DNA of 64,000 bases from Acidobacteriota bacterium (GTDB lineage: Bacteria; Acidobacteriota; Vicinamibacteria; Vicinamibacterales; UBA8438). How positions within the stretch are numbered: the stretch's first letter is position 1; each line of letters begins with the position of its first letter. Positions 23,695 to 60,859 of this stretch are shown piece after piece. The translations under genes were made by a program, and so were the position numbers. The notes beneath the pieces are model-generated. The model saw only the letters and a list, made by a program, of their open reading frames with translations, had not been told where the DNA came from and made no database searches. Location of the stretch: positions 10 to 64,009 of the forward strand of contig DQNS01000041.1 of the NCBI GenBank assembly GCA_015659035.1, read 5' to 3'.

Positions 23695-24903
23695 CTATTC
23701 GAGCGCCTGGCCCAAGAGTCGGCGAGCGAGCGCTGTGACCTCGTCGGGGTCGGCGTCGAACCCGCCGCCCTGCGCGACTTCCGGACGACCACCGCCGCGC
23801 CCAGCCCAGCGGCCCAGCAAGCCCCGGATCAGGGCGGCCGCGTCGAGGTCGACATCGTGGGCGCGCGCGACGACGACCGCGACCGGCCGTGCGTCCGACG
23901 TCAGGACAGCGACGTGACCCCCCCGGCGCACCACTTCGACGGCCACCGCCTTGAGCGACCCGGCGTCGTGCCCGGCGAGCCGTGACACCACCACGGTCGC
24001 CCCGCCAACCGGCTGTCCGGCCGCGACCAGCGATGCCGCATCGAGCGACACCAGACGGCCCTCGAGCGCCCGGGTCACCCGCCGCTGGTCACGCTGACCG
24101 GTCTGGACCCGCTTGATTTCCGACACCAGCTCCTCCGGCGTCACCGAGAGCAACCGGACACACCCGGCCACCTGCTCCCGCTGGGCGCGAACGTGTCGGA
24201 GCGCCCGTTCGCCACAGACGAACCCGACACGCGTACCGCCCTTGAAGCGCTCGGCGGACGACACGGCGATGATCCCGATGGCCCCGGTCCGTTCGACGTG
24301 CGTCCCGCCGCAGGCCGACAGGTCGCATCGGTCGATCTCGACAAGCCGGACCCGTCCGGTCCGACTGGACGGCTTTCGCAGCTCGAGCCGGGCTGCCTCC
24401 TCCGCACTGACGAGGCGGACCGTGACCACCCGGTCGTCCCAGACGACCGCGTTCGCCGCCGACTCACTCGCCACCACCTGCTCTGGTGACAGCGGCCGGT
24501 CGAGATCGATGGTCGAGGCTCGCTCTCCGAGATGAAAGCCGACCGTCCGGGCCGCGTATAACTGCGCGAACGCGGCCGAGAGCACATGCTGCCCGGAATG
24601 CTGCTGCATGTGGTCGAACCGGCGGGGCCAGTCGACCTGGCCGTGCACCGTCTCCCCGACCGCCGGGACCGGCGCCGCCTCCACCATGTGCCACACTGTT
24701 CCGTCCTCGCGATCGACGACGTCAACAACCCGGCCGGAGCCCAGGGAGCCGGTGTCGTTCGGCTGCCCACCCGAGGTCGGGTAAAAGGCGGTCCGGTCCA
24801 GCCGGACCGCCACGCATCCATCGGCCGGCTCGGCCGCCACGACGGCCGCCGCAAACTCCCTCAGCGTGGAGTCGGTGTAGTAGAGACGGGTGGTCGCGCT
24901 CAT
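23695..24903 (-). CDS. alaX: alanyl-tRNA editing protein (AlaX-L type)
   Basis: HxxxH ([10 protein letters not shown]) and CGGTHV zinc motifs of the tRNA-SAD editing domain, plus a C-terminal DHHA1-like part. Confidence 0.8.
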
Positions 24904-25637
24904 GGGTTCGTGCTCGTCCCTTCAGGCTTCGGGCTTCGGGCTTCAGGCTCGGCCGTGAGCGCCGGGTCGACGAGACCCGCCTGCGCAAAGCCGCGGGCGC
25001 GCAGCTGACAGCTGTCGCAGCGCCCGCAGGGACGTCCGTCCGGTGTGGGCGCATAGCAGCTGTGGGTCAACCCGTAGTCGAGACCCAGCGCGTGTCCGCG
25101 TGTGATGATTTCCACCTTCGACCAGCGAACCAGCGGCGCGTGCACGCGAAACCGCGCCCCCTCGACCCCGGCCTTCGTCGCCAGGGTGGCCAGCCGCTCG
25201 AACGCAGCGATGTACTCGGGGCGACAGTCGGGATACCCGGAGTAGTCGAGCGCGTTGACCCCGATGAACAGGTCGGTGACGCCGAGCACCTCGGCCCAGC
25301 CGAGCGCCAGCGACAGCAGCACGGTGTTGCGCGCCGGGACGTAGGTCGATGGGATACCGTCACGGTCCGGCGGCCGGTCCATCGGAACCTCGCCGGCCCC
25401 GGTCAACGCCGAGCCGCCGAACGCGGCCAGGTCGACCTCGAGCTCGAGATGGCGCGCGACATCCAGCGCGCGCGCCACCCGACGCGCCGCGTCGAGCTCG
25501 CACGTGTGGAGTTGCCCATAGCGGACCGTCAAGGCGAACAGGACGAACCCCTCGGCCCGCGCGATCGCCGCGGCCGTATACGAGTCGAGCCCGCCGCTCA
25601 GCAGCACGACCGCTCGTCGCGCCGTCCCATCAGCCAT
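24900..25637 (-). CDS. queC: 7-cyano-7-deazaguanine synthase
   Basis: [14 protein letters not shown]-loop and C-terminal CGRCDSC zinc cluster. The last 25 or so codons run through an R1-type repeat. Confidence 0.9.
24920..24950. repeat. R1-related repeat (CTTCGGG/CTTCAGG variant) inside the queC 3' end
   Basis: CTTCAGGCTTCGGGCTTCGGGCTTCAGGCTC. Confidence 0.5.
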
Positions 25638-25790: not shown

Positions 25791-26432
25791 TCAAACCCCC
25801 CGTGTCTCGGCTCCCCACAGATGCTTGTGCAGCTGGATCTGCAGCCGCACCGGCAGACGGTCGGCGAGCATCCACTCGGCGAGGCGCGCCGGCGGCAACA
25901 GGTCGTGTACGGCCGAGAACAGCACCGTCCCGCACCGCGTCTCGAGCGTGTGCCGCCGCACCACGTCCCGCGCGAACTCGTAGTCGACACGGTCGGCGAT
26001 GACGAACTTGACCTGGTCGCGGTCGGTCAGCCTCGAGAGGTTATCCCAGGCGTTCCGGTCACACTCGCCGCTCCCGGGACACTTGACGTCCACGACCTTG
26101 ACGACCGCGGCCGGCACACGGGCCACGCTCACGTGCCCGCCGGTCTCCAGCAGCACGGTGGCGCCGGTGGCCAGCAGCCGGTCCATCAGGGGATAGACGT
26201 CCTCCTGCAGCAGCGGCTCGCCCCCGGTGATCTCGACCAGGTCGCACCGGTACTGCTCGACAGCGGCGACGACCTCGTCCACGTCGAGCTTGCGCCCCTC
26301 GTGAAACGCATACGGCGTATCGCACCAGACACAGCGCAGATCGCAGCCGGTCAACCGCACAAAGACACACGGCCGGCCGGTGTGGGTGGACTCGCCTTGA
26401 ATCGAATGGAAGATCTCGTTGACAGTCAGCAT
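25791..26432 (-). CDS. queE: 7-carboxy-7-deazaguanine synthase (radical SAM)
   Basis: EIFHSIQGES and CDLRCVWCDT radical-SAM cluster motif. Start taken at ATG 26432 (MLTVNEIF). Confidence 0.9.
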   Translation of the reverse strand: MLTVNEIFHSIQGESTHTGRPCVFVRLTGCDLRCVWCDTPYAFHEGRKLDVDEVVAAVEQYRCDLVEITGGEPLLQEDVYPLMDRLLATGATVLLETGGHVSVARVPAAVVKVVDVKCPGSGECDRNAWDNLSRLTDRDQVKFVIADRVDYEFARDVVRRHTLETRCGTVLFSAVHDLLPPARLAEWMLADRLPVRLQIQLHKHLWGAETRGV

Positions 26433-26534
26433 GGCCGAGGGCGCCCACATCCATTCTACCCGTGGCGCCAGTGCGCTAGCACCAGCCGTGCGTGACGAAG
26501 CAGGATGTGTACTTCAAGGCGGCGCTTCGCTAGA

Positions 26535-27588: not shown

Positions 27589-28314
27589 TCACGTCCCCAC
27601 CTTGGCCACACCGATCCGCGGGCACAGCGCCGCAATAGCGCAGCGGCCGCAAGTCGGGTAGACCGGCTTACAGACGTTCTGTCCCCAGGTCACCAGATAC
27701 AGGTTGATCTGGGGCCACCAGCGGCGCGCCGCCACCTGGTAGAGCGCCTGCTCGGTCTCCTCAGGTGTGCGTGTCTCGACCCACCCCAGGCGGTTGGAGA
27801 TCCGATGGACGTGGGTGTCGACACAGATGTTGTCCTCGCTTCCGAGCGCTACAATGAGCACGAGGTTGGCGGTCTTGCGGCCGACACCCGGCAGGGTGAG
27901 CAGCTCCGGCATCGTCGTCGGCACCCGTCCGCCATACCGATCCAGCAGCAGCCGGCATGTCTGCCTGACGTGCTGCGCCTTGTGCCGGTAGAAGCTGACC
28001 GGGTAGATCAGCGTCTCGATGGTGCTCACGCGCAGCCTGACCATCTCGCGCGGCGTGCCGGCGCGAGCAAAGAGCCGGTTGGAAGCCTCGAACGTGACCG
28101 GGTCCCGTGTCTGGGCCGACAACATCGTGGCGACCAGCACCTTGAAGGGATCGGAGTGCTCCTCCTCGGCGATCTTCTCGACCGCCGGCTCGGCCATCGA
28201 GCGCATCGCGGCTTCCAGCCGGTGCATCACCCGGGCCACCTGCCGACGGGCGGTATCAGACGAACCAGGACGTGGCCCACGCACGCGACCGCCGGTTCTC
28301 TTCGCACTGCTCAT
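27589..28314 (-). CDS. nth: endonuclease III
   Basis: HhH-GPD motif LPGVGRKTANLVL and C-terminal Cx6Cx2Cx5C Fe-S cluster loop. Confidence 0.9.
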   Translation of the reverse strand: MSSAKRTGGRVRGPRPGSSDTARRQVARVMHRLEAAMRSMAEPAVEKIAEEEHSDPFKVLVATMLSAQTRDPVTFEASNRLFARAGTPREMVRLRVSTIETLIYPVSFYRHKAQHVRQTCRLLLDRYGGRVPTTMPELLTLPGVGRKTANLVLIVALGSEDNICVDTHVHRISNRLGWVETRTPEETEQALYQVAARRWWPQINLYLVTWGQNVCKPVYPTCGRCAIAALCPRIGVAKVGT

Positions 28315-29369
28315 GACTCGGTATCACCGGATGTACGCCTGATGCTGGCGAAGCCCTCCTGCTTCCTCCTGACTCCCGCCGTCTGACTCCTGCCTCCTGT
28401 AGGGAGTCTCACCGGCGTGATCGCCGGCCGGCCGCAGAGCACCGCCACGACGTTCCGCGCGGCGAGGTCGGCCATCGTGGCCCGGGTCTCGCGCGTCGCG
28501 CTGCCCAGATGCGGCACCAGACAGACGTTTTCACGCGACAGCAGCCCCTCGTGCACGCGCGGCTCCCGTTCGTAGACGTCCAGACCCGCCCCGGCGATCA
28601 GACGTTCCTCCAGCGCCCACACCAGCGCCGCCTCGTCGACCACGGGACCGCGTGACGTGTTGATCAGAAACGCAGAGCGTTTCATGCGCGCCAGCGCCCG
28701 CCGGTCGATCAAGTGGCGTGTCTCCGCCCTCATCGGCACGTGCAGAGACACGACGTCGGAGCTCAGCAGCAGCTGGTCGAGTGGAAGCACAGCGGCGGCC
28801 GTCTCTGGGCCGGACACGTCGCCGCCGGGTCGGGCGGCGAACACGGCGCGCATGCCGAACGCCGGCGCCACCGCCGCAACGGCACGACCGATCCGCCCCG
28901 CGCCGATGATCCCGAGCTGCTTGCCGCGCAGCTCGGTGCCCAGCATGAAATCGAACGTCCACCCCGACCACGCACCGCGGCGGATGACACGCTCCCCTTC
29001 GCCGAGACGACGCGTCACGGCGAGAATCAGGGCCCAGGTCAGCTCGGCGGTCGCGCCGGTCAGCACATTCGGTGTGTTCGTCACGACGATGCCCCGTGTG
29101 GCCGCGGCCGTCACATCGATATTGTCGAAGCCGACCGCGACCGTGGCGATGACCCGGAGCTGGTCACCCGCGGCAATCACCGCGGCGTCGATCCGGTCGG
29201 TGAAGACGCAGATGATCCCCTGCTTCCCCCGTAGCCGGGCGCACAGCGCCTCGTGCGTCAGGTCGTCGGGCTCGGTGTGCAGGTCGATCTCGCCGACCGC
29301 GTCGAGCTGAGCGAGCACGGCGGACGGCATCCGCCGCGTCACGAGGACGGCTGGCTTTGGCGGGACCAT
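28311..29369 (-). CDS. D-isomer-specific 2-hydroxyacid dehydrogenase (glyoxylate/hydroxypyruvate reductase-like)
   Basis: GIIGAGRIGRAVA NAD-binding motif and catalytic-domain similarity. The last 30 or so codons are R1-repeat derived. Confidence 0.85.
   Translation of the reverse strand: MVPPKPAVLVTRRMPSAVLAQLDAVGEIDLHTEPDDLTHEALCARLRGKQGIICVFTDRIDAAVIAAGDQLRVIATVAVGFDNIDVTAAATRGIVVTNTPNVLTGATAELTWALILAVTRRLGEGERVIRRGAWSGWTFDFMLGTELRGKQLGIIGAGRIGRAVAAVAPAFGMRAVFAARPGGDVSGPETAAAVLPLDQLLLSSDVVSLHVPMRAETRHLIDRRALARMKRSAFLINTSRGPVVDEAALVWALEERLIAGAGLDVYEREPRVHEGLLSRENVCLVPHLGSATRETRATMADLAARNVVAVLCGRPAITPVRLPTGGRSQTAGVRRKQEGFASIRRTSGDTES
28344..28398 (+). repeat. R1 family repeat unit (inside the 3' end of the dehydrogenase ORF)
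   Basis: GCTGGCGAAGCCCTCCTGCTTCCTCCTGACTCCCGCCGTCTGACTCCTGCCTCCTG. Confidence 0.75.
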
Positions 29370-29380
29370 CTTCTCTCGTT

Positions 29381-29397
29381 GGTTTGAGGCGCAGCGT
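29381..29397 (-). repeat. R2 family partial copy
   Basis: GGTTTGAGGCGCAGCG is the reverse complement of the R2 5' block CGCTGCGCCTCAAACC. Confidence 0.5.
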
Positions 29398-29399
29398 TA

Positions 29400-29663
29400 C
29401 TATCCCGTCGGGTCGACGATGCCGACAATCGCCGCGTCCACCGGGGCCGCGCGCCGGCCGAGGGCGGCACCCGCGGCGCGTCCCTCGAGCACGAGCAACA
29501 CCAGCTCGCCGACACCGGCGCCGACCGAATCGACGGCCAGCTGGACCCCGCCCACCGGCTGACCGTCCCGGTCCACCGGCTGGGTCAACAGCAGCTTCGC
29601 ACCGACGAGCGTGCGGTGCTTCCGCGTCGCCACGACGGAGCCAATGACCCGAGCCAGACGCAT
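29400..29663 (-). CDS. BMC vertex protein (BMC-P, EutN/CcmL family), paralog 1
   Basis: MRLARVIGSVVATRKH..LLLTQPVD..AVDSVGAGVGELVLL..PVDAAIVGIVD is the canonical EutN/CcmL pattern. Confidence 0.85.
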   Translation of the reverse strand: MRLARVIGSVVATRKHRTLVGAKLLLTQPVDRDGQPVGGVQLAVDSVGAGVGELVLLVLEGRAAGAALGRRAAPVDAAIVGIVDPTG

Positions 29664-29740
29664 GGTGCAGTCCTAGACAGCTCCTACGGGATGAGATAGT
29701 AACGTCTGAAGCAAGTTTTCATGACACGCGGAGATGTCTA

Positions 29741-29829
29741 GGCCCCGCGTAGCGGGGCTGTGAGAAAAGCTTCTGCTAGCGAGGCTGCGCGTCACTTTTC
29801 TCGTCGATTTGAGGCGCAGCTTCGCTAGC
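29741..29829 (-). repeat. R2 family repeat unit
   Basis: Reverse complement reads CTAGCGAAGCTGCGCCTCAAATCGAC..CTCGCTAGCAGAAGC..AGCCCCGCTACGCGGGGCC. Lies between BMC-P1 and BMC-P2. Confidence 0.8.
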
Positions 29830-30145
29830 GTCTCGGGGCCCGACGTCTTGGGGACCGTCGCGGCGGGCCGGCGGGGACGTCGTCAGTCGTCCAGTGGTCG
29901 CAGATCCCGGTAACGGCGGCGTCGGTCGGCACCACAGCCGGGAGAAACGGAAAGGACGCCGCCCGCCCGCGGACGAAGAACACCTCTTCCCCGGCGCCGG
30001 CGCCGACGGCGTCGACTGCCACGAGCGGCCTGCCCACGGCCTCACGGGCGGGTGAGAGCGGTTGCACCACGAGCAACGTGAGCCCGACCAGACCCGGGTC
30101 CTTGATGGTCGAGACGACGTTGCCGATCACCCGCGCAAGCTGCAT
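29825..30145 (-). CDS. BMC vertex protein (BMC-P), paralog 2, with basic C-terminal tail
   Basis: MQLARVIGNVVSTIKDPGLVGLTLLVVQPL..AVDAVGAGAGEEVFF. The tail PPRRSPRRRAPRR partly overlaps the R2 copy. Confidence 0.8.
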   Translation of the reverse strand: MQLARVIGNVVSTIKDPGLVGLTLLVVQPLSPAREAVGRPLVAVDAVGAGAGEEVFFVRGRAASFPFLPAVVPTDAAVTGICDHWTTDDVPAGPPRRSPRRRAPRR

Positions 30146-30197
30146 CGATCGAAAGCCCTGGAGTGCGTGGGATTCGGGTTTCCACGCTGCGATCTCT

Positions 30198-30482
30198 TCA
30201 GGTCGAGTCGTCGGTCTCGACGATATCGACGATATCGACGATGCCGACGATCGCGGCGTCGACCGGGCGGTCGGCCAGACCGGCCGCCATCCGCGCGGAG
30301 CTCCCGCTGACGATCAGCACGGTCTCGGCGGCGCCGGCGTCCACGGTGTCGACCGCTACCAGCTGGGCGCCGCGCGGCTCGCCATCGGGCGAGACGGGCT
30401 GTACGAGCAGCAGCGTGCTGCCGACCAGACGCTCGTCCTTACGCGTCGCGACGACGGTACCCACCACCTTGGCGAGGATCAT
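30198..30482 (-). CDS. BMC vertex protein (BMC-P), paralog 3, with acidic repeat tail
   Basis: MILAKVVGTVVATRKDERLVGSTLLLVQPV..AVDTVDAGAAETVLI..PVDAAIVGIVDIVDIVETDDST. Confidence 0.85.
   Translation of the reverse strand: MILAKVVGTVVATRKDERLVGSTLLLVQPVSPDGEPRGAQLVAVDTVDAGAAETVLIVSGSSARMAAGLADRPVDAAIVGIVDIVDIVETDDST
30217..30252. repeat. 4 x 9-nt tandem repeat (NTCGACGAT) in the BMC-P3 3' end
   Basis: CTCGACGAT ATCGACGAT ATCGACGAT GCCGACGAT encodes the reiterated IVD motif. Confidence 0.85.
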
Positions 30483-30492
30483 GTCGTGTCTG

Positions 30493-30582
30493 CTAGCGAA
30501 GCTGCGCCTCAAACCGACAAGTGAACGCGGTGCGCCCCCTCGCTAGCAGAAGCATTTTGCAGAGCCCCGCTACGCGGGGGCT
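30493..30582 (+). repeat. R2 family repeat unit
   Basis: CTAGCGAAGCTGCGCCTCAAACCGAC..CTCGCTAGCAGAAGC..AGCCCCGCTACGCGGGGGCT between the BMC-H stop and the BMC-P3 start. Confidence 0.8.
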
Positions 30583-30608
30583 CGCGCGGGTCCGCCCGGC
30601 GGACACGG

Positions 30609-30896
30609 TCACTGGCCGGTGCTCTTGCCGATCGGCAGGACGTCCTCGAGGTTGCTGTGGGGCCGCGGGATCACGTGGACCGACACGAGCTCGCCGACCC
30701 GACGAGCCGCGGCGGCGCCGGCGTCGGTGGCCGCCTTCACCGCCGCCACGTCGCCTCGGACGAGCGCGGTCACGAACCCTGCGCCGATCTTCTCCCAACC
30801 GACCAACGTGACATTGGCGGCCTTGACCATGGCATCCGACGCTTCGATCATCGCCACCAGTCCCTTGGTCTCCACCATTCCGAGCGCCTCGCCCAT
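30609..30896 (-). CDS. BMC hexamer shell protein (BMC-H, PduA/EutM-like)
   Basis: [54 protein letters not shown] lies 7 nt upstream of ATG 30896. Confidence 0.9.
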
Positions 30897-30909
30897 GAGA
30901 TGCCTCCCG

Positions 30910-31794
30910 CTACCGTAGCTGCTTGACGGCATCTGCGATCAGCGCCGTCAGCTCGCGGTATGTTAATCGAATTCCGTCGTCCGGATCTAACAGTCCGAGG
31001 TGACAGTCCCGCGTCGCGGCACCACCGGACCCGACCGTCTGCGCCTCGACCAGCCGCGCCCCTGGCTGCGACGGCGCCTCGAGCACCTGACAGCTAACGT
31101 CCTCTCCCTCCTTGCCCTCCTCCCGAGCCGGCGGGCAGAGCGGCGCCGGTGCCGCGATGCCATAGCGGTCCCGGAGGCCCTGCAACCGGTTCACTTCTTC
31201 CCGTGACAACAGCCGCTCGCCGCCGAGCTGTCTGGCCACCAGGCTGATCCGCGCGAAGTGCTCCACCGTCTCCATCTTGTAATAGGCGCCGAACAGATCG
31301 TGCGCCACGGTCAGGGCGCCGTGGTTGGCCAGCAACAATCCGTCGTGCGCGCGGATGTAGTGCCGCACGGCATCGGCCAGCTCGCTGGTGGATGGGGTGC
31401 CGTAGTCAGCGATCGGTATGCTTCCGAGGGTCGTGACGACCTCGGCCAGGACCGCCCGGTCGAGCGGGATCCCGGCAACCGAGAACCCGGTGGCGGTCGG
31501 CGGGTGCGCGTGCACGACCGCCTCGATCTCCGGCCGGTGCTCGTAGACCGCCAGATGCATGAGGATTTCAGACGACGGCTCCCGTTCCCCGGTCAGCTTG
31601 CGCCCACTGAAGTCGGTGGTGACCATCATGTCCGGCGTCATGAACCCCTTGGAGACGCCGGCCGGGGTCGTCAACAGCCGCTCGGCATCAAGCCGCACGC
31701 TGATGTTGCCGTCATTCGACGCAACGAAGCCGCGGTCGTGCAATCGCCGCCCGATCTCGACGATGTCGGCGCGGAGCCGTTCCTCGATCTGCAT
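30910..31794 (-). CDS. class II aldolase/adducin-family protein with C-terminal extension
   Basis: [14 protein letters not shown] and [11 protein letters not shown] zinc-ligand region. About 75 extra C-terminal residues end in an amphipathic helix. Confidence 0.85.
30913..30972 (-). other. putative encapsulation peptide of the aldolase
   Basis: Terminal [20 protein letters not shown] is an amphipathic helix preceded by a Pro/Gly/Ser/Glu-rich linker. This is the typical architecture of BMC cargo targeting peptides. Confidence 0.55.
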
Positions 31795-31806
31795 CTCGTG
31801 TCTCGA

Positions 31807-32027
31807 GTCCGAAGTTCGCGAACATTTTCCGGGCGGGGCATCCCGCCTGGCGGCGCCAGCCGCCGCCCGGCCCGTTCATGGCCGGGCTATGGCCAGGTCT
31901 CGCCGAAGCCGTGGCGACGGCGGATTGCTCCTCGGTCGAATGCTGCCGGTATGCTCCCTCGTCGCGCCTGCACTGGCCGGACGCAGCATGAGTACGACGC
32001 CGGAAAATCTGTCCGCGAACCTCTGAC
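31807..32027 (-). ncRNA. candidate structured RNA element, SE family copy E (with about 70-nt insertion)
   Basis: Closing helix GTCAGAGGTTCGCG/CGCGAACTTCGGAC pairs at 13 of 14 positions. Core reads GCAGGCGCGACGAGGGAG..GACCGAGGAGCAAT..[GC-rich insert]..CCAGGCGGGATGC. Ends 13 nt before the aldolase ATG. Confidence 0.5.
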
Positions 32028-32035
32028 CCGAAACA

Positions 32036-32323
32036 CTAGTCTCGGGCTCGGGCTCGCGATTCCTGCTGGAACGCCGTGCGGCAGTACTCGGAGCAGAAGT
32101 AGTGCATCCCCCCCTTCCGGCGGAGCGTCAGGGCCCGCGCCTGGTCGACGTAAGTCCCGCACACCGGGTCCCGCACCAACGGTACCCCTTTCGCGGGAGG
32201 TATCTGAGGCCGGCGCGCGGCACCCTCGACGACACCGCCGATAAACTTCCAGACCAGCCGCACCAGCAGCATCACGACGAGAAACCGGATGAGCCAGCCA
32301 AACACCATTTGAGTCGGCGACAC
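32036..32323 (-). CDS. small membrane protein with YHS/TRASH-like metal-binding domain
   Basis: N-terminal TM segment, then VRDPVCGTYVD..YFCSEYC pattern. Confidence 0.65.
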   Translation of the reverse strand: MSPTQMVFGWLIRFLVVMLLVRLVWKFIGGVVEGAARRPQIPPAKGVPLVRDPVCGTYVDQARALTLRRKGGMHYFCSEYCRTAFQQESRARARD

Positions 32324-32339
32324 GCGCCAGGCCCGCCTG

Positions 32340-32384
32340 CTAGTGGCCTGTCTGGGCCACTTGTGGCCTGTATAGGGCCACTAG
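32340..32384. repeat. double palindrome GTGGCC-N6/7-GGCCAC
   Basis: CTAGTGGCCTGTCTGGGCCACTTGTGGCCTGTATAGGGCCACTAG. A related half copy TGTGGCCCGTATAGGGC lies at 35182-35198. Confidence 0.7.
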
Positions 32385-32956
32385 GGATGTGCGGCACGGA
32401 TGCGTTCGATCGCGTCGGCGGCGGCGAGCGCTTCGGGGCTGCCAGGGGCGACCCGCTGGACCTCTTCCCAGGCTTCGATGGCACCCTCGAGATTCTGTTT
32501 CCCGAAGGCCCGGACGATACCAAGGTTCAGGATCGTCTTGGCGTGCGCCGGGTCCACGTCCAGTGACCGGGCAAACTGCAAGAGCGCGCGATCGGTGTCG
32601 TCCATGTAGTAGTACGCCACCCCAAGATCGGTGCTGACCTCAACCTCCTCTGGGCTCAGCGCAAGCGCTGCTTCAAACCAGGGGATCGCGTCTTCGAAGC
32701 GATGGGCGTCAAAGTAAAGATTCCCGAGGTCCACACGAACCTGGACATCCTCTGGTGCGTTCTCAGCGGCCGCGCGCAGCTCCACCGCGCGCGCCTCGTC
32801 GATGGGCGGCACCTCCGGCACCGGTAGGGTCTGAGCGGGGGGCGTCTGGGTCGCGGCCACCGGATCCGCCGGCCACTGGCTCCAGATAATCCAGCCCATC
32901 AGCCCACCCGCCAGCGCCAGCGACAAGACGAGGGGCAGCGGTTCGGTGCGGCTCAT
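32381..32956 (-). CDS. membrane-anchored tetratricopeptide-repeat protein
   Basis: N-terminal TM segment (LPLVLSLALAGGLMGWIIW). TPR-like repeats (LGNLYFDAHRFEDAIPWFEAAL, LGVAYYYMDD..). Confidence 0.7.
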   Translation of the reverse strand: MSRTEPLPLVLSLALAGGLMGWIIWSQWPADPVAATQTPPAQTLPVPEVPPIDEARAVELRAAAENAPEDVQVRVDLGNLYFDAHRFEDAIPWFEAALALSPEEVEVSTDLGVAYYYMDDTDRALLQFARSLDVDPAHAKTILNLGIVRAFGKQNLEGAIEAWEEVQRVAPGSPEALAAADAIERIRAAHP

Positions 32957-33020
32957 GAGGAATGTCTGGCCTTCTCGAGCCGATCATAACAACGCGACCC
33001 GAACGGCGTCCACACGCGCG

Positions 33021-33728
33021 TCAGCCGAGAAGAACGACCATCTCGCGGACGGCCCTTTCCAGACCCACCAGGACAGCGCGCGCGACGATGCTGTGACCGA
33101 TGTTGAGCTCGACGATCTCCGGAATGGCGGCGACTGGCTTCACATTCACGTAGGTCAGCCCGTGACCGCCGAGCACCTCGAGCCCGTCCTCGTGCGCCTG
33201 GCTGGCCGCCTGCCGGATCCGCACGAGCTCCGCCGTTCGTCCGTCAGGGGTGGCATCGGCGTAGGGGCCTGTGTTGAGCTCGACCGCGGTCGCCCCCGTC
33301 TCACGAGCCTGCACGATCTGGTCCGGCGCCGGGTCAATGAACAGACTGACCGTGATACCGGCCGCCTGCAACCGCCCTACCACGCCGGCAATCGCCGTCT
33401 GGTGCTGCACAACGTCAAGACCCCCGGTCGTGGTTACCTCGTCCGGGTACTCCGGCACCAGCGTCACTTGACCCGGCTTCACGTCGCCGGCGATCGCGAC
33501 CATCTCGTCGGTCGCCGCCATCTCTACGTTGAGCCGAGTCGACACCACCTCGCGCAACAGCCGCAGGTCGCGGTCCTGGATGTGGCGCCGGTCTCCGCGC
33601 AGATGCACGGTGATGCCATCTGCGCCGGCCAGTTCCGCCAGCGCCGCCGCCGTCACCGGCTCCGGCTCGCGTGCGCGCCGCGCCTGTCGAATCGTCGCCA
33701 CGTGGTCGATGTTGACGCCAAGACGCAT
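33021..33728 (-). CDS. pdxJ: pyridoxine 5'-phosphate synthase
   Basis: [19 protein letters not shown]-terminus and ELNIGHSIV near the C-terminus. Confidence 0.92.
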
Positions 33729-33825: not shown

Positions 33826-35178
33826 TTACGACGCGCCCTCCCCGAGATCGACCCGCACACGTGCCGCGATCGTCTCGGCGAGTCGCTGGATCGCCTCCTG
33901 ATCCGGTCCTTCGATCATGATCCGCAGCAGCGGCTCGGTTCCCGAGTAGCGGACGAGCACCCGACCCTTCCCCACGAGATCGCGCTCGGCCTTCTTGATG
34001 AGCCGCGACACCTCGAGGAGCTTCGCCAGCGCGGTCCGCTGCCGCACTCGCACATTCACCAGCACCTGGGGCAACGGCACCAGATCAGCGGCCAGGTCGG
34101 CCAACTCCCGTCCGGTCTCGATGACCGCCCGCACGATCACCAGGGTGGTGGCCAGCCCGTCGCCGGTCGCCAGGTGGTCGGCGAAGATCGTGTGTCCGGA
34201 CTGTTCGCCGCCGAGCGCGATGCCGCGCCGGTTCATTTCCGCCCACACCAGCCGGTCCCCTACCGAACACCGGTGCACCGCGATGCCGTCGGCGCGCAGG
34301 GCGTGCTCCAGCCCGATGTTGCTCATCACGGTCGCCACCACCGCCTCCCGAGGCAGCCGTCCCGCCGCCGCGAGCCGGCGGGCCGCTATCAGCAGCACCG
34401 CGTCGCCGTTGACCAGCGTGCCTCGGTGGTCGACAAACACGACCCGGTCGCCGTCGCCGTCGAAGGCCGCGCCCAGCCGGCATCCCTGCTCGACCACCAC
34501 CCGCGCCAGACGCTCTGGATGGGTGGAGCCGCAGTCGAGGTTGATGTTGCGACCATCCGGCCGATCGTGCAGCACGATCGGGTCCAGCCCCAACCCCCGC
34601 AGTACCGCCGGCGCCAACTGGCTGGTGGCGCCGTTCGCACAGTCGATGGCGATCCGCAGGTCCGCCGGCACCGTCACCCCGTTGAGAATCCGGCTGGTGT
34701 GGGCGATGTACGATTCGCTGAACGCGATGGGCTCCACCGACGGAACCGGGGTGTCGGGCACCGCCCAGGTCTCGTCGGTTACTAACGCCGTGATCCGCGC
34801 CTCCAGATCGTCATCCGCTTTCTCGCCGTCTCCCGTGATGACCTTGACCCCGTTATCCCGGAACGGGTTGTGCGAAGCGGAAACAACGATGCCCGCGTCG
34901 AACTCGCCGTCACGTGTGAGAAACGCGACCGCCGGTGTCGACAGGAGACCGCCGTCGGTCACGCTGCCCGCCTCGCTCTCGATCCCGCGCGCCAGCTGAG
35001 CTGTGATCCACTCGCCCGACTCGCGCGTGTCTCGGCCGATGAGCACCTGGACGGAGTCGCCGGCGCCGCTGTGCATCCTGACGACAGCCGCGCCGAGCCG
35101 CGCGAGCGTGCGCGCGTCCAGCGGAGGCTCGCCGGGCGTACCACGAACGCCATCGGTGCCGAACAACCTCGTGGACAT
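33826..35178 (-). CDS. glmM: phosphoglucosamine mutase
   Basis: MSTRLFGTDGVRG N-terminus and SASHNPFRDNGVK active-site serine loop. The ORF is open to 35208. Confidence 0.93.
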   Translation of the reverse strand: MSTRLFGTDGVRGTPGEPPLDARTLARLGAAVVRMHSGAGDSVQVLIGRDTRESGEWITAQLARGIESEAGSVTDGGLLSTPAVAFLTRDGEFDAGIVVSASHNPFRDNGVKVITGDGEKADDDLEARITALVTDETWAVPDTPVPSVEPIAFSESYIAHTSRILNGVTVPADLRIAIDCANGATSQLAPAVLRGLGLDPIVLHDRPDGRNINLDCGSTHPERLARVVVEQGCRLGAAFDGDGDRVVFVDHRGTLVNGDAVLLIAARRLAAAGRLPREAVVATVMSNIGLEHALRADGIAVHRCSVGDRLVWAEMNRRGIALGGEQSGHTIFADHLATGDGLATTLVIVRAVIETGRELADLAADLVPLPQVLVNVRVRQRTALAKLLEVSRLIKKAERDLVGKGRVLVRYSGTEPLLRIMIEGPDQEAIQRLAETIAARVRVDLGEGAS

Positions 35179-35265
35179 ACCTGTGGCCCGTATAGGGCGA
35201 ATCAGCATCGCTCTCCGGGTGAATACAACGGGGCGTTCACCACGGGCTGCCAGGGGGGCCTGCGC

Positions 35266-36189
35266 TCACCGAAGGGTGACCAGCACGATCGTGGGCTCGA
35301 CCTGGGTGACCTCGAAGGCACGCTGTGGCGCGAACTCGACCGACAGATTGTAGCTGCCGGCTTCCCGGCCGGCTAGGTCGACGAAGGCACCCACCATGCT
35401 GCTGTCGAGCCCGCGCATCTGCTCTGGCGGTCCATACACGGTGACCGTGATCGACTCCGGTGTGACCCTGGCCGACAGCCCTGACGGCGCATTTCGCACC
35501 CGGACCGGCACCTCGACCAGCGTCCGCTCGACCGGCGCACGCACGATCTCGACCGTCACCCGTGCTGCGCCTGGAGTCTCGAGCCGCAAGTTCGGGTCCG
35601 CCAGGCCGACCGTGAGTGATTCCTCCAGTGGAACTGAGGCGTTCGTCACGTCGAGCGGCTCGGTGATCGCCTCGGTCAGCTGACGCAGCAGGCTCAGCGG
35701 ACCGACGACCGCCACAGTGGACGGGTCGGCGACAACACGGCCTACCACGAACCCCGGCGCCGGCTCACCCTCGACCACCGGCACGACCGGCACGACCCGA
35801 GGTGACCCCGCGTCCTCGAGCGTCAGCGAGACTGTCGACGGAATCACCTGGGTCACCTGGACACCGGGTGGAGCGCCACGGACGCGATCGGCCGTCATGT
35901 CGAACAGACGGGGCCCCAGACGCTCTGACTTCAGATCGATGATCGCCGTCACCTCCCCCGCTTCGAGACGGCGCAGTACCGCCGATGGTCCGCGGAGCCG
36001 CACCTCCACCTCGTCGGGCAATTCCCCCAGGATCTCCACCGAAGCCGGCACGTTCTCGAACTCCAGCGGAACGCGCAGACCCCGCTCCGCGACCGGGTCC
36101 CCGCCGACCGTCAACCACCAGAGCAGCACGGCCAGCGCGGTCGCTAACACCTTCAGCCCGAGGTCCCGGAAGAGCGGAACGGCCATCAT
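35266..36189 (-). CDS. cdaR: YbbR-domain protein (CdaR-like regulator of diadenylate cyclase)
   Basis: N-terminal anchor plus repeated YbbR-like beta segments. Conserved cdaA-cdaR-glmM order. Confidence 0.7.
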   Translation of the reverse strand: MMAVPLFRDLGLKVLATALAVLLWWLTVGGDPVAERGLRVPLEFENVPASVEILGELPDEVEVRLRGPSAVLRRLEAGEVTAIIDLKSERLGPRLFDMTADRVRGAPPGVQVTQVIPSTVSLTLEDAGSPRVVPVVPVVEGEPAPGFVVGRVVADPSTVAVVGPLSLLRQLTEAITEPLDVTNASVPLEESLTVGLADPNLRLETPGAARVTVEIVRAPVERTLVEVPVRVRNAPSGLSARVTPESITVTVYGPPEQMRGLDSSMVGAFVDLAGREAGSYNLSVEFAPQRAFEVTQVEPTIVLVTLR

Positions 36190-37004
36190 GCGCCGAGTGG
36201 CTTCGCCTCCTCGCGGGGCTGACGTCCTGTGCGACGCAGCATCAGCGCTTCGAGCCGATACCGCAGCTGGTCCGGTTCGAGATCCTGCTCGATCTGCCCG
36301 TCCAGCACCAGCGACAGCAGACCGGTCTCTTCCGAGACGACGAGGGCGACGGCATCGGTCTCCTCGCTCAACCCGATGGCCGCGCGGTGACGGGAACCCA
36401 GGTTCTTGCTGACGCTGGGATTGACGGTCAGGGGCAGAAAACAGGCGGCGGCGGCGATCCGATCCTGCTGGATGACCACTGCGCCGTCGTGCAACGGTGA
36501 GCCCGGCCGGAACACGCTGACCAGCAGGTCGTAGCTGACCGCCGCGTCGAGCGGGATGCCGCTCTCGACGTAGTTGCCCAGCCCGATCTCCCGCTCGATC
36601 GCAACGATGGCGCCCTGACGTTGCTCGGACAGCATGCGCAACGCCACCACGACTTCCTCGATCGTCTCGTCAGTGGCCTCCGGCCGGTTGAGATATCGGA
36701 AGAACGGGGCACGTCCGAAGTGCGCGAGCGCCCGCCGGATGTCCGCCTGGAACAGCACGATCGCGGCGAAGACGATGTAGCCGAACATATCCCGGACCAG
36801 CCAGTTGAGCGTCTGTAGCGGAGTGAACCGCGACGCGTAGTACAGCCCGACGACCAGACCGACGCCGATGGAAATTTGAACCGCGTGCGCGCGACGGATC
36901 AGCTTCAGGACCTCGTAAATCAGCAGCCCGACGATCAGGATGTCGACCAGATCCCACAAGCTGACCCGGTTCAGCCGCAACACGCTGGTCAGACTCTCAA
37001 TCAT
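36186..37004 (-). CDS. cdaA: membrane-bound diadenylate cyclase
   Basis: Three N-terminal TM segments. DAC domain motifs DGAVVI and LGSRHRAAIGLSEETDAVALVVSEETG. Confidence 0.9.
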   Translation of the reverse strand: MIESLTSVLRLNRVSLWDLVDILIVGLLIYEVLKLIRRAHAVQISIGVGLVVGLYYASRFTPLQTLNWLVRDMFGYIVFAAIVLFQADIRRALAHFGRAPFFRYLNRPEATDETIEEVVVALRMLSEQRQGAIVAIEREIGLGNYVESGIPLDAAVSYDLLVSVFRPGSPLHDGAVVIQQDRIAAAACFLPLTVNPSVSKNLGSRHRAAIGLSEETDAVALVVSEETGLLSLVLDGQIEQDLEPDQLRYRLEALMLRRTGRQPREEAKPLGA

Positions 37005-41292: not shown

Positions 41293-41369
41293 TGGTGCCG
41301 GTGCAGGGACTTGAACCCCGGACAACGCGGATATGAGCCGCGTGCTCTAACCAACTGAGCTACACCGGC
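41293..41369 (-). tRNA. tRNA with CAU anticodon (elongator Met or lysidine-dependent Ile2)
   Basis: Reverse complement GCCGGTG-TA-GCTC-AGTTGGTTA-GAGC-A-CGCGG-CTCATAT-CCGCG-TTGTC-CGGGG-TTCAAGT-CCCTG-CACCGGC-A-CCA folds as a full cloverleaf. G1:C72 argues against an initiator tRNA. Confidence 0.9.
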
Positions 41370-41606: not shown

Positions 41607-42653
41607 TCACAGAATCAACATCGCGTCGCCGTAGCTGTAGAACCGGTAGCCATGTCGTACCGCCTCGGCATAGGCGGCCAGCACCCGCTCCCGCCCGGCG
41701 AAGGCGCTGACGAGCAGCAGCAGCGACGACCGGGGTAGATGAAAGTTGGTGAACAGGGCGCCGGTGACCTGGAACGTCACGCCAGGATACAGGTAGAGGT
41801 CGCTGACACCCCCGCCCACCGGCAGCCGACCGGCCCCAGCCCGAACCGCCGTTTCGAGCGTGCGCGTCGTGGTGGTGCCGACCGCCACGACCCGTCGGCC
41901 CTCATCGATGGCGCGGTTGAGGGTCGCGGCGGTCGCGGCGGGCACGTGGTATGGCTCCGGCTCGACGCGGTGCTCCTCGACACGGTCCACGCGGACCGGC
42001 TGAAACGTGCCGTAGCCGACGTGCAGCGTCACCCGCGCTACGTCGACCCCTCGGTTCCGGACACGCGTCAGCAAGGCGTCGGTCAGATGGAGACCCGCAG
42101 TCGGCGCCGCCACCGAGCCGCGGACCGTGGCATAGACCGTCTGGTAGCGCTCACGGTCGGCCGGCTCATCCGGCCGTTTGATGTAGGGGGGCAGCGGCAC
42201 GTGCCCGAGCGTGTCGATCGCCGCGTCGACCGGGGACCCGTCTTCAACCCAGAGCCGGATCGTGCGACGTCCATGGAACCGACGCGCAAGCACTTCGCCG
42301 CGCAGCCGGAGCCCGTCCCGCTCGAACACGACGGCGGCGCCAACCCGCAGCTTCTGCCCCGGATGCATCAGGGCATCCCACTGCTCCGCATCGAGTCGTC
42401 TCAGGAGCAGACACTCGACCGCGCCACCACTCGGCACGCGACGGCCGAGCAGCCGCGCAGGGAACACGCGGGTGTCGTTGACGACGAGCAGGTCGCCCGG
42501 CGTCAGCAACTCGGGCAGATCGGCGACCGTCCGGTGGCACACGGTGCCGCGGTCGCGGTCGAGCACCAGCAACCGGGCCGCCTCACGGTCCGGCGTCGGA
42601 GTCTGCGCGATGCGGTCTGCCGGCAGCTCGAAATCGAAATCGGAGAGAAGCAT
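41607..42653 (-). CDS. queA: S-adenosylmethionine:tRNA ribosyltransferase-isomerase
   Basis: MLLSDFDFELPADRIAQTP N-terminus and C-terminal FYSYGDAMLI. Confidence 0.93.
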   Translation of the reverse strand: MLLSDFDFELPADRIAQTPTPDREAARLLVLDRDRGTVCHRTVADLPELLTPGDLLVVNDTRVFPARLLGRRVPSGGAVECLLLRRLDAEQWDALMHPGQKLRVGAAVVFERDGLRLRGEVLARRFHGRRTIRLWVEDGSPVDAAIDTLGHVPLPPYIKRPDEPADRERYQTVYATVRGSVAAPTAGLHLTDALLTRVRNRGVDVARVTLHVGYGTFQPVRVDRVEEHRVEPEPYHVPAATAATLNRAIDEGRRVVAVGTTTTRTLETAVRAGAGRLPVGGGVSDLYLYPGVTFQVTGALFTNFHLPRSSLLLLVSAFAGRERVLAAYAEAVRHGYRFYSYGDAMLIL

Positions 42654-42799
42654 GGAGGATCGCACGCGGCTCGGTACGCTCTCCGCGTCGCGAAGGCGAT
42701 GGCTTTGGGCGCTCTGGAGCTACGCTCATCGAGGGTCGCACGCGACTCGTAGGCCCGCCGCGTCGCGAAGGCTATGGGCTAAAGCCGGCAGAACAGTCT

Positions 42800-49973: not shown

Positions 49974-51905
<1,932 letters not shown>

Positions 51906-51969
51906 ATCCTGTCTCCTGCTGAATCGTGTCACCGAGAATGGCACGCGAGCGGCGTCGAGTGCAAGCCCG

Positions 51970-52842
51970 TTACTGGGCCACGACGGCCCGCACATCGCGC
52001 GCGCACCGGACGCCGATGTTGCTGGTCTGTCCGGTCTGCGCAAACGGCAGACGCACCGACGTCCGCAACGCCGCCGGAAAGTTCAACCAGGACCCGCCCC
52101 GGGCGATGCGGGCATAGCCGGTGGCCGCCCCGGGCGGATCGATGGACGGCGACGACCCATAGTAATCGTCGTCGAGCCAGCCGCCGACCCACTCCCAAAC
52201 GTTGCCCGCCATGTCGTAGAGCCCGAAATCGTTGGGCGGGAACGACCGCACCGGCCCCGTGTTCAGCCACCCGTCCGCGCCGCCGGTCGCGCCGGCGCAG
52301 CACTGCTCGGCGCCATAGTTGGCCCGGTCCCGGGACGCCTCGTTCCCCCACCCATAGACCAGCCCCATCCGACCGCCGCGCGCGGCGTACTCCCACTCGG
52401 CCTCGGTGGGTAGACGGACGCCGGCCCAGGCGCAAAAGGCGACCGCATCGTCCCAGCTCAGCAGGACGACCGGATGCCGGTCGGTCTGGCGATAGTCCGG
52501 TTCCGGCGGAGACGGATACCCGGTGTCCAGGGGGAACCGGGCGTACTGCCCAACGGTGACCTCGGCGGCCATCAACTCGAACGGCTGAAGAAACGTGACC
52601 TCGTGGCGCGGGTGCTCGTTGTCGAGACAGCTGGTGTCGGCCTCGACGCAGCCCATGAGGAACGTGCCGGCCGGCACACGGACCCATCCGAGACCCGCCG
52701 CCACCTGGAGGGCGCCGTTCGGTGCCACGGTGCCGCGAGACGTCGCGGCCGCGACCACAGCGGTACCAAGAACGACCAGCGCAACAGGCCCCGCGACGAC
52801 CAGCATCATCAGGACAACGGCCACACCAAGTCTTCGCATCAC
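51970..52842 (-). CDS. formylglycine-generating-enzyme (SUMF1) family protein with N-terminal anchor
   Basis: [15 protein letters not shown] and [10 protein letters not shown] motifs. Confidence 0.8.
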
Positions 52843-52895: not shown

Positions 52896-54767
52896 TCACC
52901 ACCCGATGGCATACATCATCCGGCGTGGGTCGGCGCCGGCCACCATCGTGCCGGTCTCCGGGTTCCTCAGGATCCCCTGCATGTTGCCGATGGAGTACTC
53001 CCGGACCGACTGCGCGTCGTGCCCCATCTCCGACAACCGGCTGATGACGAACGGCGCCACCCGGCCCTCCACACGCACGGTCACGTCGGCGCCCGGCTTG
53101 TAGAAACTCGGGGCCGCGCTCAGCGAGATACGGGGTGCCTCGATCGCCTCCTGGATACCCATACGGAAATCGATCACGTTCAACAGGACCTGAAACTGGG
53201 TCTGCCCGATCGTCTCCCCGCCCGGGGTACCCAGCGCGAGGAAGAACTCGCCGTCCTTCAGGACCAGCGTCGGCGAGTTGTTGAGAATCGGAATCTGACC
53301 GCCACGCACGTAATTCACATCGTCCGGATACGGCGAGGTCGAGCCGATCCTGGTGCCGTTGTTGAGAAACAATCCGGTGCTCCCCACCACGACCCCGGTG
53401 CCCCATCCGCTGCCGAGGGTCGGGGTAGCGACGACGACGTTCCCCCAGCGATCGACGATCGAGAAGCTGGTCGTGCTGCCGGGGTAGGCGGTCTCTGCGA
53501 GCGTCGGTCCGCTAGCCGCGCCGAGCAACGCCGACGTTGACGTCATCGGCGACGACTGGGCCCCGGGCGGCGTGCCGTGGTCGGGGTAGGACATCGCGTG
53601 ATCGGGCGAGATCAGTATCCGCCGTGTGTCGGCGAACGCCTTGGAGGTCATGCCGGCGGTCGGCATGTCGGCGTGCTTCGGGTCGGTCACGAAGTGATAG
53701 ATGTCCGACTTGGCGACCTTGATCGACTCGGCGATCAGATGCAGCGCCGTGGCCGAGTTGTGCCCAAGCGAGGCCAAGTCGAAGCCCTCGATCAGGTTGA
53801 GCTGCATCACGACCTCCAGCCCGCCACGTGACGTCGCGGGGCTCGAGTAGACGTCGTAGCCGCGGTAGGTCGTGTGGACCGGCTCCGTCCAGATCGGCTC
53901 GTAGGCCGCGAAATCAGCGCGTGTGAACAGCCCGCCGTCACGCTGATAGAACCGGGCCATCTCGCGGGCGATATCGCCTCGGTAGAACCGGTTGAACGCG
54001 GCGCGCAGACCGGTCTCGCGTGACACCCCGTCGAGCCGCGCGGTCTCCTCGGCCTCCACCAGCTTGTGGAACGTTCTGGCCAGATCCGGGTATCTGAAGA
54101 GCTGTCCCACGACCGGCGCCTTACCATCCGGCAGAAACACTGCGGCGGTCGAGGGATACCGCTCGAGCAGCTCCCGGGAGCGGCTGATCGAGGTAGCGAC
54201 GAACGCGTCCAGTGGATGACCGCGCTCGGCGTACTCGATCGCCGGTTCGAGCACCTGGCCGAGCGTCATCGTGCCGAACCGCTCCAGCACCGCGATCCAG
54301 CCGCCGAACAACCCCGGTACCACCCCGGCCTTCATGCCGCGGTTCAGCTCTTCCGGCGTGATCGTCGCCGCATCGAGCGCCTTCGGCGCCGCGCCGGTGG
54401 CATTCAGCGAGTAGACGCGGTCGGTCTCGGCGTCATAGATCGTCATGAAGCCATTGCCACCGGCGCCCGACATCATCGGCTCGACCTGGTTCAGGGTCGC
54501 CAGCACTGTCACGGCGGCGTCGGCGGCGGTCCCACCCTGCATCAGGATCCGCATGCCGGCCATCGCGGCAAGCGGGTGACCGGCCGTGATCAGCCCGTGG
54601 ACACCCGGCACCGCCGGTCGGTGCGCCACGAGCCCGTCGGTGATCGGATCGGCGCTCAGCGCCGGTGCCGGATCGGTGGCTTCGACGACCGCCGGCACTT
54701 CACCGGCGCAACCGGCGGTGAAGATGACCACGGCGAGCAACATGGTGGACGTGCGGAAGTGCAACAT
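52896..54767 (-). CDS. ggt: gamma-glutamyltransferase (lipoprotein-type signal)
   Basis: GGTAADAAV, MSGAGGNGFM, and autoprocessing site GSTTSFSIVD. Confidence 0.9.
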   Translation of the reverse strand: MLHFRTSTMLLAVVIFTAGCAGEVPAVVEATDPAPALSADPITDGLVAHRPAVPGVHGLITAGHPLAAMAGMRILMQGGTAADAAVTVLATLNQVEPMMSGAGGNGFMTIYDAETDRVYSLNATGAAPKALDAATITPEELNRGMKAGVVPGLFGGWIAVLERFGTMTLGQVLEPAIEYAERGHPLDAFVATSISRSRELLERYPSTAAVFLPDGKAPVVGQLFRYPDLARTFHKLVEAEETARLDGVSRETGLRAAFNRFYRGDIAREMARFYQRDGGLFTRADFAAYEPIWTEPVHTTYRGYDVYSSPATSRGGLEVVMQLNLIEGFDLASLGHNSATALHLIAESIKVAKSDIYHFVTDPKHADMPTAGMTSKAFADTRRILISPDHAMSYPDHGTPPGAQSSPMTSTSALLGAASGPTLAETAYPGSTTSFSIVDRWGNVVVATPTLGSGWGTGVVVGSTGLFLNNGTRIGSTSPYPDDVNYVRGGQIPILNNSPTLVLKDGEFFLALGTPGGETIGQTQFQVLLNVIDFRMGIQEAIEAPRISLSAAPSFYKPGADVTVRVEGRVAPFVISRLSEMGHDAQSVREYSIGNMQGILRNPETGTMVAGADPRRMMYAIGW

Positions 54768-54803: not shown

Positions 54804-55265
54804 CTACGGCCGTCGGACCGCGACGCCCATCACCTCGAACCGCGCGCCCCGTAGCAAGGCGCCTGACCCGACAAACGCCCGGGCGGGCGGGTCGCTCGTG
54901 AAGTAGCTGGTGTACACCGCATTGAAATCGGCGTAGTGGGCCACGTCGGAACAGAACACCTGGACGCTGACGAGATCGTCCATCGTCATCCCGGCCTCCT
55001 CGAGCACCGACTTGATCCCATCGAGCACGTTCCGGGCTTCCTGCCGCGGCTCCGCGGGAGGTTGCCCGGTCTCCGGGTCCATGCCCAGCCGACCGGAGAG
55101 ATAGAGCGTGTCACCGGCCAGCACCGCGTCGCTGAACGGTGCCTGGGTGGTGCGCCCCGGCAGATTGATTGCGCGTCGCTCCGGCTGCGCCGACACCGAC
55201 CCGAGCCCGCCGACAACGACACCGCCCAGGACGAGACCCGCAACGAAGATGTGCAACGTTCTCAT
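54804..55265 (-). CDS. RidA/YjgF family protein with N-terminal signal peptide
   Basis: Signal-like MRTLHIFVAGLVLGGVVVGGLGSVSAQ. RidA-like core ending in RFEVMGVAV. Confidence 0.75.
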   Translation of the reverse strand: MRTLHIFVAGLVLGGVVVGGLGSVSAQPERRAINLPGRTTQAPFSDAVLAGDTLYLSGRLGMDPETGQPPAEPRQEARNVLDGIKSVLEEAGMTMDDLVSVQVFCSDVAHYADFNAVYTSYFTSDPPARAFVGSGALLRGARFEVMGVAVRRP

Positions 55266-56251: not shown

Positions 56252-56430
56252 GTGTCTGCTCCAGCCTCCTTGGAGCCCGCAGCATCGTGGGCACCGGAAT
56301 CATATCTGCGCGGCCGGTCGGCTCTCAACCGCCCACCCGGCGTGATCTCTTGACTGCTACCTTCTGACCTCTGTCTTCTTGACGCGCGCGAGAGTGACAA
56401 GACGTGCGTCTTTGGGCACACTGTGACGGC

Positions 56431-59264: not shown

Positions 59265-59285
59265 TCACTGTCCCGTGGGAGGATC

Positions 59286-60734: not shown

Positions 60735-60743
60735 ACAACTCAC

Positions 60744-60852: not shown

Positions 60853-60859
60853 TTCGGGC

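Follow-up and report, generated by a model that had tools for sequence, protein, structure and literature searches.

We analyzed a small bacterial microcompartment (BMC) locus in a 64,000-nucleotide stretch of contig DQNS01000041.1, from an Acidobacteriota genome of the order Vicinamibacterales (GCA_015659035.1); this whole stretch is referred to as the window. Translations and Pfam searches over every large open reading frame (ORF) in the window confirmed five consecutive minus-strand genes, with the content and order proposed in an earlier note on this DNA: a class II aldolase, one BMC-H hexamer shell protein and three BMC-P paralogs (P1, P2 and P3), followed by a D-2-hydroxyacid dehydrogenase (HADH). 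The aldolase, the presumed signature cargo, is a Zn-type, FucA/OtnC-like family enzyme of 294 aa (30910-31794) that matched PF00596 (Aldolase_II, E = 3e-48) over residues 10-184. Beyond its catalytic domain (approximately residues 1-212), some 80 aa extend the C-terminus and contain a conserved linker element (aa 216-249, 31048-31149) and a terminal amphipathic helix (aa 275-294, 30913-30972) that we read as an encapsulation peptide (EP) from its conservation, predicted helix and hydrophobic face. The EutM/PduA-like BMC-H (ORF 30609-30932, called start 30896, 95 aa) matched PF00936 (BMC, E = 1.6e-29). P1 (ORF 30198-30512, likely start 30482, 94 aa), P2 (29825-30145, 106 aa) and P3 (29400-29663, 87 aa) matched PF03319 (EutN_CcmL) with E-values of 1e-30, 5.5e-26 and 8.4e-30, respectively; the starts for BMC-H and P1 were taken from gene calls on identical metagenome contigs. 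The HADH (28311-29369, minus strand) is D-isomer-specific and glyoxylate/hydroxypyruvate-reductase-like, with matches to PF00389 (2-Hacid_dh) and PF02826 (2-Hacid_dh_C). Directly upstream of the aldolase, also on the minus strand, lies a gene that the earlier note had omitted, encoding a small YHS/TRASH-type protein of 95 aa (32036-32323; PF04945, E = 1.9e-9). Upstream of this gene, on the same strand, is a gene for a tetratricopeptide repeat (TPR) protein that begins with a membrane helix (32381-32956; TPR Pfam matches).

In every feature that could be compared, this gene set agrees with how the ACI type of BMC has been defined, and the window thus very probably holds the main locus of an ACI-type BMC from a marine member of the Vicinamibacterales. 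It is an already known kind of locus, an ordinary member of a type catalogued in 2021. The ACI type comprises 125 loci, found only in Acidobacteria and mainly in Subdivisions 4 and 6 (Sutter, Melnicki, Schulz, Woyke & Kerfeld 2021, Nat Commun 12:3809, PMC8217296). Its main locus combines a triplet of BMC-P genes and at least one BMC-H with a pfam00596 aldolase that bears a C-terminal EP and with a hydroxyacid dehydrogenase (pfam00389/02826); an EP-bearing aldehyde dehydrogenase (AldDH, pfam00171) is encoded on a satellite locus (PMC8217296). According to Supplementary Data 2 of the catalogue, the BMC-H interface motifs are typical and the three BMC-P genes nearly always lie side by side. Two kinds of uncharacterised protein are also described, one of approximately 80 aa that has conserved cysteines and carries an EP at its N-terminus and another with three conserved histidines, while PduS/PduT pairs are occasional only and lie at satellite sites (PMC8217296). 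The HADH and the small uncharacterised proteins are regular components, with a dedicated hidden Markov model for the dehydrogenase. The catalogue authors called the ACI aldolase "quite distinct", nearest to HO/MIC3, and proposed a role for the type in carbohydrate degradation (PMC8217296).

The window has an acidobacterial host, a pfam00596 aldolase with an EP-like tail, an HADH, an adjacent BMC-P triplet and one BMC-H whose translation carries the facet-interface motifs KAAN and PRPH, with no AldDH at the main locus. As a candidate for one of the small proteins, the window has the 95-aa YHS/TRASH protein with three cysteines. It differs from fuller ACI loci in lacking an EP-like Cys/His protein of 73-80 aa, whose gene lies after P3 in roughly half of the relatives. 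The earlier note had considered an aldolase-only core with one BMC-H and three BMC-P genes to be unusual, but the same set makes up the published ACI definition. Its suggestion of a poorly characterised BMC type holds for ACI, the described type matched here. Literature searches for functional studies of ACI, or of BMCs in Acidobacteria, returned only the 2021 catalogue and its preprint. The note's other suggestion, a satellite locus, was mistaken in that the window represents the ACI main locus and sound in that an AldDH partner is expected elsewhere in the genome.

Likenesses to other BMC types were partial. The HO BMC of Haliangium ochraceum and relatives shares a BMC-P triplet and a class II aldolase encoded with BMC-P genes, and proteins from this system are close to P1 and BMC-H of the window. 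However, HO loci encode three BMC-T proteins, as in the H. ochraceum model shell, whereas the window has no BMC-T, and the host belongs to another phylum. The PVM and PVM-like loci of Planctomycetes and Verrucomicrobia and the GRM5 loci (fucose/rhamnose) have a pfam00596 aldolase as signature enzyme, and this likeness is the basis for the carbohydrate-related proposal. PVM and GRM5 loci carry an AldDH and a phosphotransacylase beside the shell genes, and the window aldolase differs in having a Leu at the position aligned with a Tyr of FucA. No member of the canonical metabolosome core known from PDU, EUT and PVM (pfam00171 AldDH, pfam06130 phosphotransacylase, alcohol dehydrogenase) was identified near the shell genes.

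Curated families were scored with NCBIfam models and their own cut-offs, and BMC-H reached 149 bits with the EutM model, above the 133-bit cut-off; its PDB matches were EutM, PduA and HO-5815. The three BMC-P paralogs were mutually 50-58% identical and all matched solved BMC-P structures, with an H. ochraceum BMC-P in 5V74 nearest to P1. Their tails were as the earlier note described: P1 ends in an acidic tail with an IVD repeat (IVGIVDIVDIVETDDST), P2 has a basic, Arg-rich tail (PRRSPRRRAPRR) and P3 has none. For comparison, a scan with one genome per species yielded 304 relatives, and the best 80 of these 304, with aldolase identities of 64-89% over residues 1-294, were used for all locus comparisons; gene presence was counted only among loci with enough flank, with denominators that differ per gene. 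In the 68 loci with three resolved BMC-P (window included), the nearest neighbour of each BMC-P was in the same positional class for all 204 of the 204 sequences, and mean identity was 0.65-0.74 inside a class compared with 0.48-0.51 between classes. The three BMC-P orthogroups were present in the fixed order P1-P2-P3 in all 68 loci, which indicates that the triplet is older than the radiation of these genomes. The short acidic tail of P1 was general and the IVD repeat lineage-specific. The P2 orthogroup was marked by the motifs FFVRGxEASFPF and DHW, and its basic tail was restricted to the closer relatives of the window. We also observed a subclade (L051, L053, L060, L064 and L071) that seemingly has two BMC-P only and lacks HADH and TPR, and in which the small EP-plus-cysteine protein is kept.

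The tail of the aldolase has the anatomy of a standard EP, as judged from its sequence. Across the 80 orthologues, the aldolase was conserved to approximately residue 220, variable and partly gapped over residues 221-270, and conserved again over the last 24 residues, where the commonest residue per column had a mean frequency of 0.8-0.9. Invariant residues were read from 41 database homologues, and within the tail these comprised R276, L277, T278, Y279, E281, L282, L285, A289 and V290. An AlphaFold2 model built from the alignment of these 41 homologues had a mean predicted local distance difference test score of 67.6, and therefore only its secondary-structure layout was used. The core was confident in places, and a low-confidence segment (aa 212-277) was followed by a terminal helix (aa 279-293), in line with the helix that the earlier note had proposed. 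This helix is amphipathic, with I275, Y279, L282, L285, I286, A289, V290 and L293 on one face and a hydrophobic spacing of i, i+3, i+4, i+7, i+8 and i+11. The EP-like character claimed for the tail was thus borne out in both the orthologues and the database homologues; a lack of conservation among orthologous aldolases, which the note had named as a point that would count against it, was looked for and was not observed. A C-terminal EP has also been reported for the ACI aldolase (Sutter et al. 2021, PMC8217296), and targeting by this tail is a probable function. The linker is not featureless: P216, C220, C235, Q236, A240 and P241 were invariant in the 41 homologues and S242, P244, L248 and V249 nearly so, and the motif CQxLEAPSxPGxRLV was likewise conserved. 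AlphaFold2 confidence was low over this element (aa 216-249). The two-Cys element may provide a further site of interaction or bind a metal.

The locus belongs to a widely shared chromosomal arrangement. The database titles of 78 of the 80 best relatives were Vicinamibacteria, Vicinamibacterales, Vicinamibacteraceae or Acidobacteria/Acidobacteriota metagenome-assembled genomes. A taxonomy look-up placed the order Vicinamibacterales in Acidobacteriota, and we take the Vicinamibacteria to be Acidobacteria Subdivision 6. An identical aldolase was present on marine metagenome contigs with gene order unchanged, for example on a 121,839-bp contig of JGI sample 3300001783, and a protein database search showed the aldolase family to be very common (at least 7,999 proteins at E ≤ 1e-10). 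The gene order in the 80 loci was (PdxJ)-TPR-YHS-aldolase-BMC-H-P1-P2-P3-(small protein)-(HADH)-(Nth). Among assessable loci, the BMC-P genes were always present, BMC-H was found in 76/76, YHS in 79/80, TPR in 65/77, HADH in 54/68 and the small protein after P3 in 34/71. The exact gene pattern of the window ranked second in frequency (15 of the 60 long related loci), and the window is a common reduced sub-variant of the ACI locus.

No BMC-T, PF00171 AldDH, PduL-type phosphotransacylase or iron-type alcohol dehydrogenase was detected by Pfam among all large ORFs of the 64 kb window, or in approximately 8 kb of the same metagenome contig past the window start, where only housekeeping genes were found. 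Pfam searches and tblastn with the shell proteins likewise revealed no second BMC or EutN gene in the window. The absence of BMC-T, AldDH, phosphotransacylase and alcohol dehydrogenase near the locus, as first noted from the sequence, was upheld over the approximately 72 kb covered in this way, and the sole alcohol dehydrogenase family gene was a Zn-type enzyme 24 kb away. The lack of any AldDH or further shell gene across approximately 72 kb fits the satellite location of the ACI AldDH.

Based on these data, and following the model of the catalogue (PMC8217296), which is the best supported, we consider it likely that the window encodes an ACI main locus with an EP-targeted aldolase, an aldehyde confined by the shell and an AldDH supplied from a satellite locus. 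BMC-H hexamers would tile the shell facets and the three BMC-P paralogs would provide the vertex pentamers. The aldolase would be drawn into the lumen by its C-terminal helix, carried on a long and poorly ordered linker. There it would most likely split a phosphorylated ketose (fuculose-, rhamnulose- or ribulose-1-phosphate-like) into dihydroxyacetone phosphate and a short aldehyde, although this aldehyde-forming step is a plausible but tentative element that we would stop short of calling probable. The aldehyde would be retained by the shell and oxidised by the EP-bearing AldDH from a satellite locus presumed to lie elsewhere in the genome. The HADH would either handle the resulting 2-hydroxy/2-oxo acid or rebalance NAD(H); it is probably located outside the shell, since it has no obvious targeting peptide. 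Of this picture, the gene identities, the taxon, the shared gene order, the conserved tail and the agreement with the ACI definition are shown by the data, whereas encapsulation, the substrate, the aldehyde intermediate and a satellite AldDH in this particular genome are inferred.

Several observations weigh against this model. All 80 loci occupy one GlmM-(PdxJ)-...-(Nth)-QueE-QueC neighbourhood, so that the adjacency of HADH, TPR and YHS is inseparable from inherited synteny, and HADH lacks a conserved extension and is missing from 14 of 68 relatives. The aldolase reached no curated NCBIfam cut-off, and its top match was to a decarboxylase family (OtnC, 3-oxo-tetronate 4-phosphate decarboxylase, 136 bits) followed by FucA (117 bits). 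An invariant Leu116 aligns with the Tyr of the HYM/SYL motif in the FucA structures 4c24 and 6btd, and the surrounding loop resembles PDB 6voq/6vop more than FucA, the counterpart there being RPFTPYVVMRVGDVP. Finally, the small EP-plus-cysteine protein is absent from the window.

The synteny of these loci supports the alternative that HADH, TPR and YHS are housekeeping neighbours retained by vertical inheritance, and that the functional unit consists of the aldolase and the four shell genes. This alternative is possible and deserves attention, although we regard it as unlikely. The HADH gave its nearest NCBIfam match to glyoxylate reductase (326 bits, cut-off 455 bits), and its orthologues begin at the catalytic domain and end near ...LTPV, with no conserved targeting extension. 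The window HADH runs approximately 30 aa past ...LTPV, but these extra residues are not conserved and their coding region (28311-28400) overlaps the longest Nth ORF; gene callers place the Nth start later, giving a protein of 212 aa. TPR was missing from 12 of 77 loci and was lost in an entire subclade that retains YHS-aldolase, and we therefore describe it as a frequent yet dispensable upstream neighbour whose membership of the system is uncertain. Movement of the TPR-to-HADH block as a unit was considered and rejected: the loci without PdxJ and Nth represent local gene losses in the same neighbourhood and are uninformative. The N-termini of YHS and TPR are membrane-helix-like. For YHS, the hydrophobic N-terminal helix had a mean hydrophobicity of 0.58 and a low hydrophobic moment, closer to a membrane helix than to an amphipathic EP. 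YHS also matched the NCBIfam PP0621 family weakly over its full length, below the cut-off, and is separated from the aldolase by a 241-bp spacer in this lineage.

In contrast, other evidence favours a link of YHS and HADH to the microcompartment. YHS, which carries three cysteines (CGT...FCSxxC), is the most constant neighbour of the aldolase: the two genes adjoin in 79 of 80 loci, including those that have lost TPR and PdxJ. YHS may correspond to an uncharacterised protein of the ACI description. Apparent YHS-aldolase fusions in three loci were rejected as an artefact of extended tblastn matches, as an in-frame stop codon was found in every locus. In the catalogue, the HADH and the small uncharacterised proteins belong to the regular ACI inventory, and the dehydrogenase has a model of its own (PMC8217296). 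System membership of the HADH and the small proteins is taken from the catalogue, which also spans Subdivision 4. The 241-bp spacer between YHS and the aldolase (31795-32035), compared with approximately 5-60 bp in most relatives, contains a GC-rich hairpin-like stretch; it had no Rfam match and no convincing promoter match.

The small protein of 73-80 aa is encoded between P3 and HADH/Nth in the relatives that carry it (for example, L081 11360-11581 and L058 12265-12504), with sequences such as MTDEEIRLLVRTAIAKHLG...CVIEPEVRCNHCGYCQCHGH. Its N-terminal EP-like helix (EELRALVREAVARHL) resembles the aldolase EP (LxALIxxAVxxxL), and its C-terminal Cys/His motif reads CxIEPxVxCxHCGYCxSxGH, with a cysteine spacing of CxxxxxxxCxxCxxC. 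The protein is also missing from the approximately 45 closest relatives of the window. In the window itself, the gap between P3 and HADH is approximately 30 bp.

The chemistry of the aldolase raises a further alternative, namely that the enzyme has the aldolase fold but yields no aldehyde, acting as an OtnC-like decarboxylase, an epimerase or a dehydratase, so that the reaction would not convert a sugar phosphate to an aldehyde. The higher OtnC score, the invariant Leu116 and the better loop alignment with 6voq/6vop all favour such an enzyme. FucA models scored only 81-117 bits on the aldolase, compared with cut-offs of 250-400 bits, and the Tyr that aligns with Leu116 is catalytic in FucA. 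OtnC as the best match together with Leu116 in place of Tyr weakens the case for a fuculose/rhamnulose aldolase step, and designation of the ACI aldolase as a certified FucA is not supported by its scores or by this position. However, every NCBIfam match, including that to OtnC, was below its cut-off and gives no secure assignment. The best PDB matches were FucA structures, S74, E76, H95, H97 and H158 were among the residues invariant in the 41 homologues, and the enzyme shares with FucA the PSSE motif, which includes Glu76, and three His ligands (His95, His97 and His158). The dedicated EP-bearing AldDH reported for ACI also implies an aldehyde intermediate (PMC8217296). On these grounds we judge an enzyme without an aldehyde product to be improbable.

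A broader departure from the aldolase model, which we rate as rather remote, is that the ACI enzyme is no fuculose- or rhamnulose-phosphate aldolase and that an undescribed, possibly metal-dependent reaction of central metabolism is encapsulated, in a shell that here would consist of one BMC-H and three BMC-P. This idea arises because the FucA Tyr is missing, the best score is to a decarboxylase family, the tail contains a two-Cys element and the locus lies in a housekeeping neighbourhood. Least probable of all, and very unlikely indeed, is a new minimal aldolase-only BMC type with no AldDH anywhere in the genome: this reading draws on the absence of AldDH, phosphotransacylase, alcohol dehydrogenase and BMC-T in approximately 72 kb, on the missing small EP-plus-cysteine protein and on the failure of a EutE-like probe to find a BMC-type AldDH within 10 kb on either side in the 80 related genomes, a result that is only a lead. 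However, the recurrence of the same arrangement in 15 of 60 long related loci marks a common sub-variant and no separate type. One weak AldDH match, 10 kb from the locus in L086, was rejected because it proved to be an ordinary non-acylating AldDH of 471 aa that carries no EP.

Housekeeping genes surround the BMC locus, and no regulator, transporter or sugar kinase is encoded locally. Upstream, a conserved operon of CdaA (diadenylate cyclase), YbbR and GlmM is situated together with FolP, FtsH and TilS (33826-37004), and queuosine genes flank the locus (QueA 41607-42665, QueE 25791-26450 and QueC 24900-25637). Approximately 25 kb from the BMC locus, and with no link to it shown, is a glycolate-oxidase-like set (56404-60908) of two minus-strand FAD_binding_4/FAD-oxidase_C genes and a divergent CCG/4Fe-4S gene. 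The vicinity of this set also contains RidA (54804-55265), the Zn-type alcohol dehydrogenase (55262-56251) and genes for a gamma-glutamyltranspeptidase (52896-54767), a member of the FGE-sulfatase family (51970-52842) and a TPP enzyme (49974-52043). At gathering level, Rfam detected a single RNA gene in the window, a tRNA-Met (CAT) at 41293-41369. A permissive Rfam search over 28200-33100 gave one chance-level match only, and a promoter and terminator scan returned nothing usable for the operon.

As a discovery, the locus carries little weight, as its architecture was catalogued in 2021 and aldolase orthologues are very common in public data. The question it raises concerns ACI chemistry in general and nothing peculiar to the window. 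Vicinamibacteria are widespread in soils and oceans, yet no experimental work on ACI was present in the literature searched. The window, whose set of seven genes includes neither a BMC-T nor the small Cys protein, offers a compact version of the ACI system for work on shell assembly and tail-dependent targeting. If the encapsulated reaction were indeed an undescribed one, its hosts would be Acidobacteria of a group that is highly abundant in soil and in the sea.

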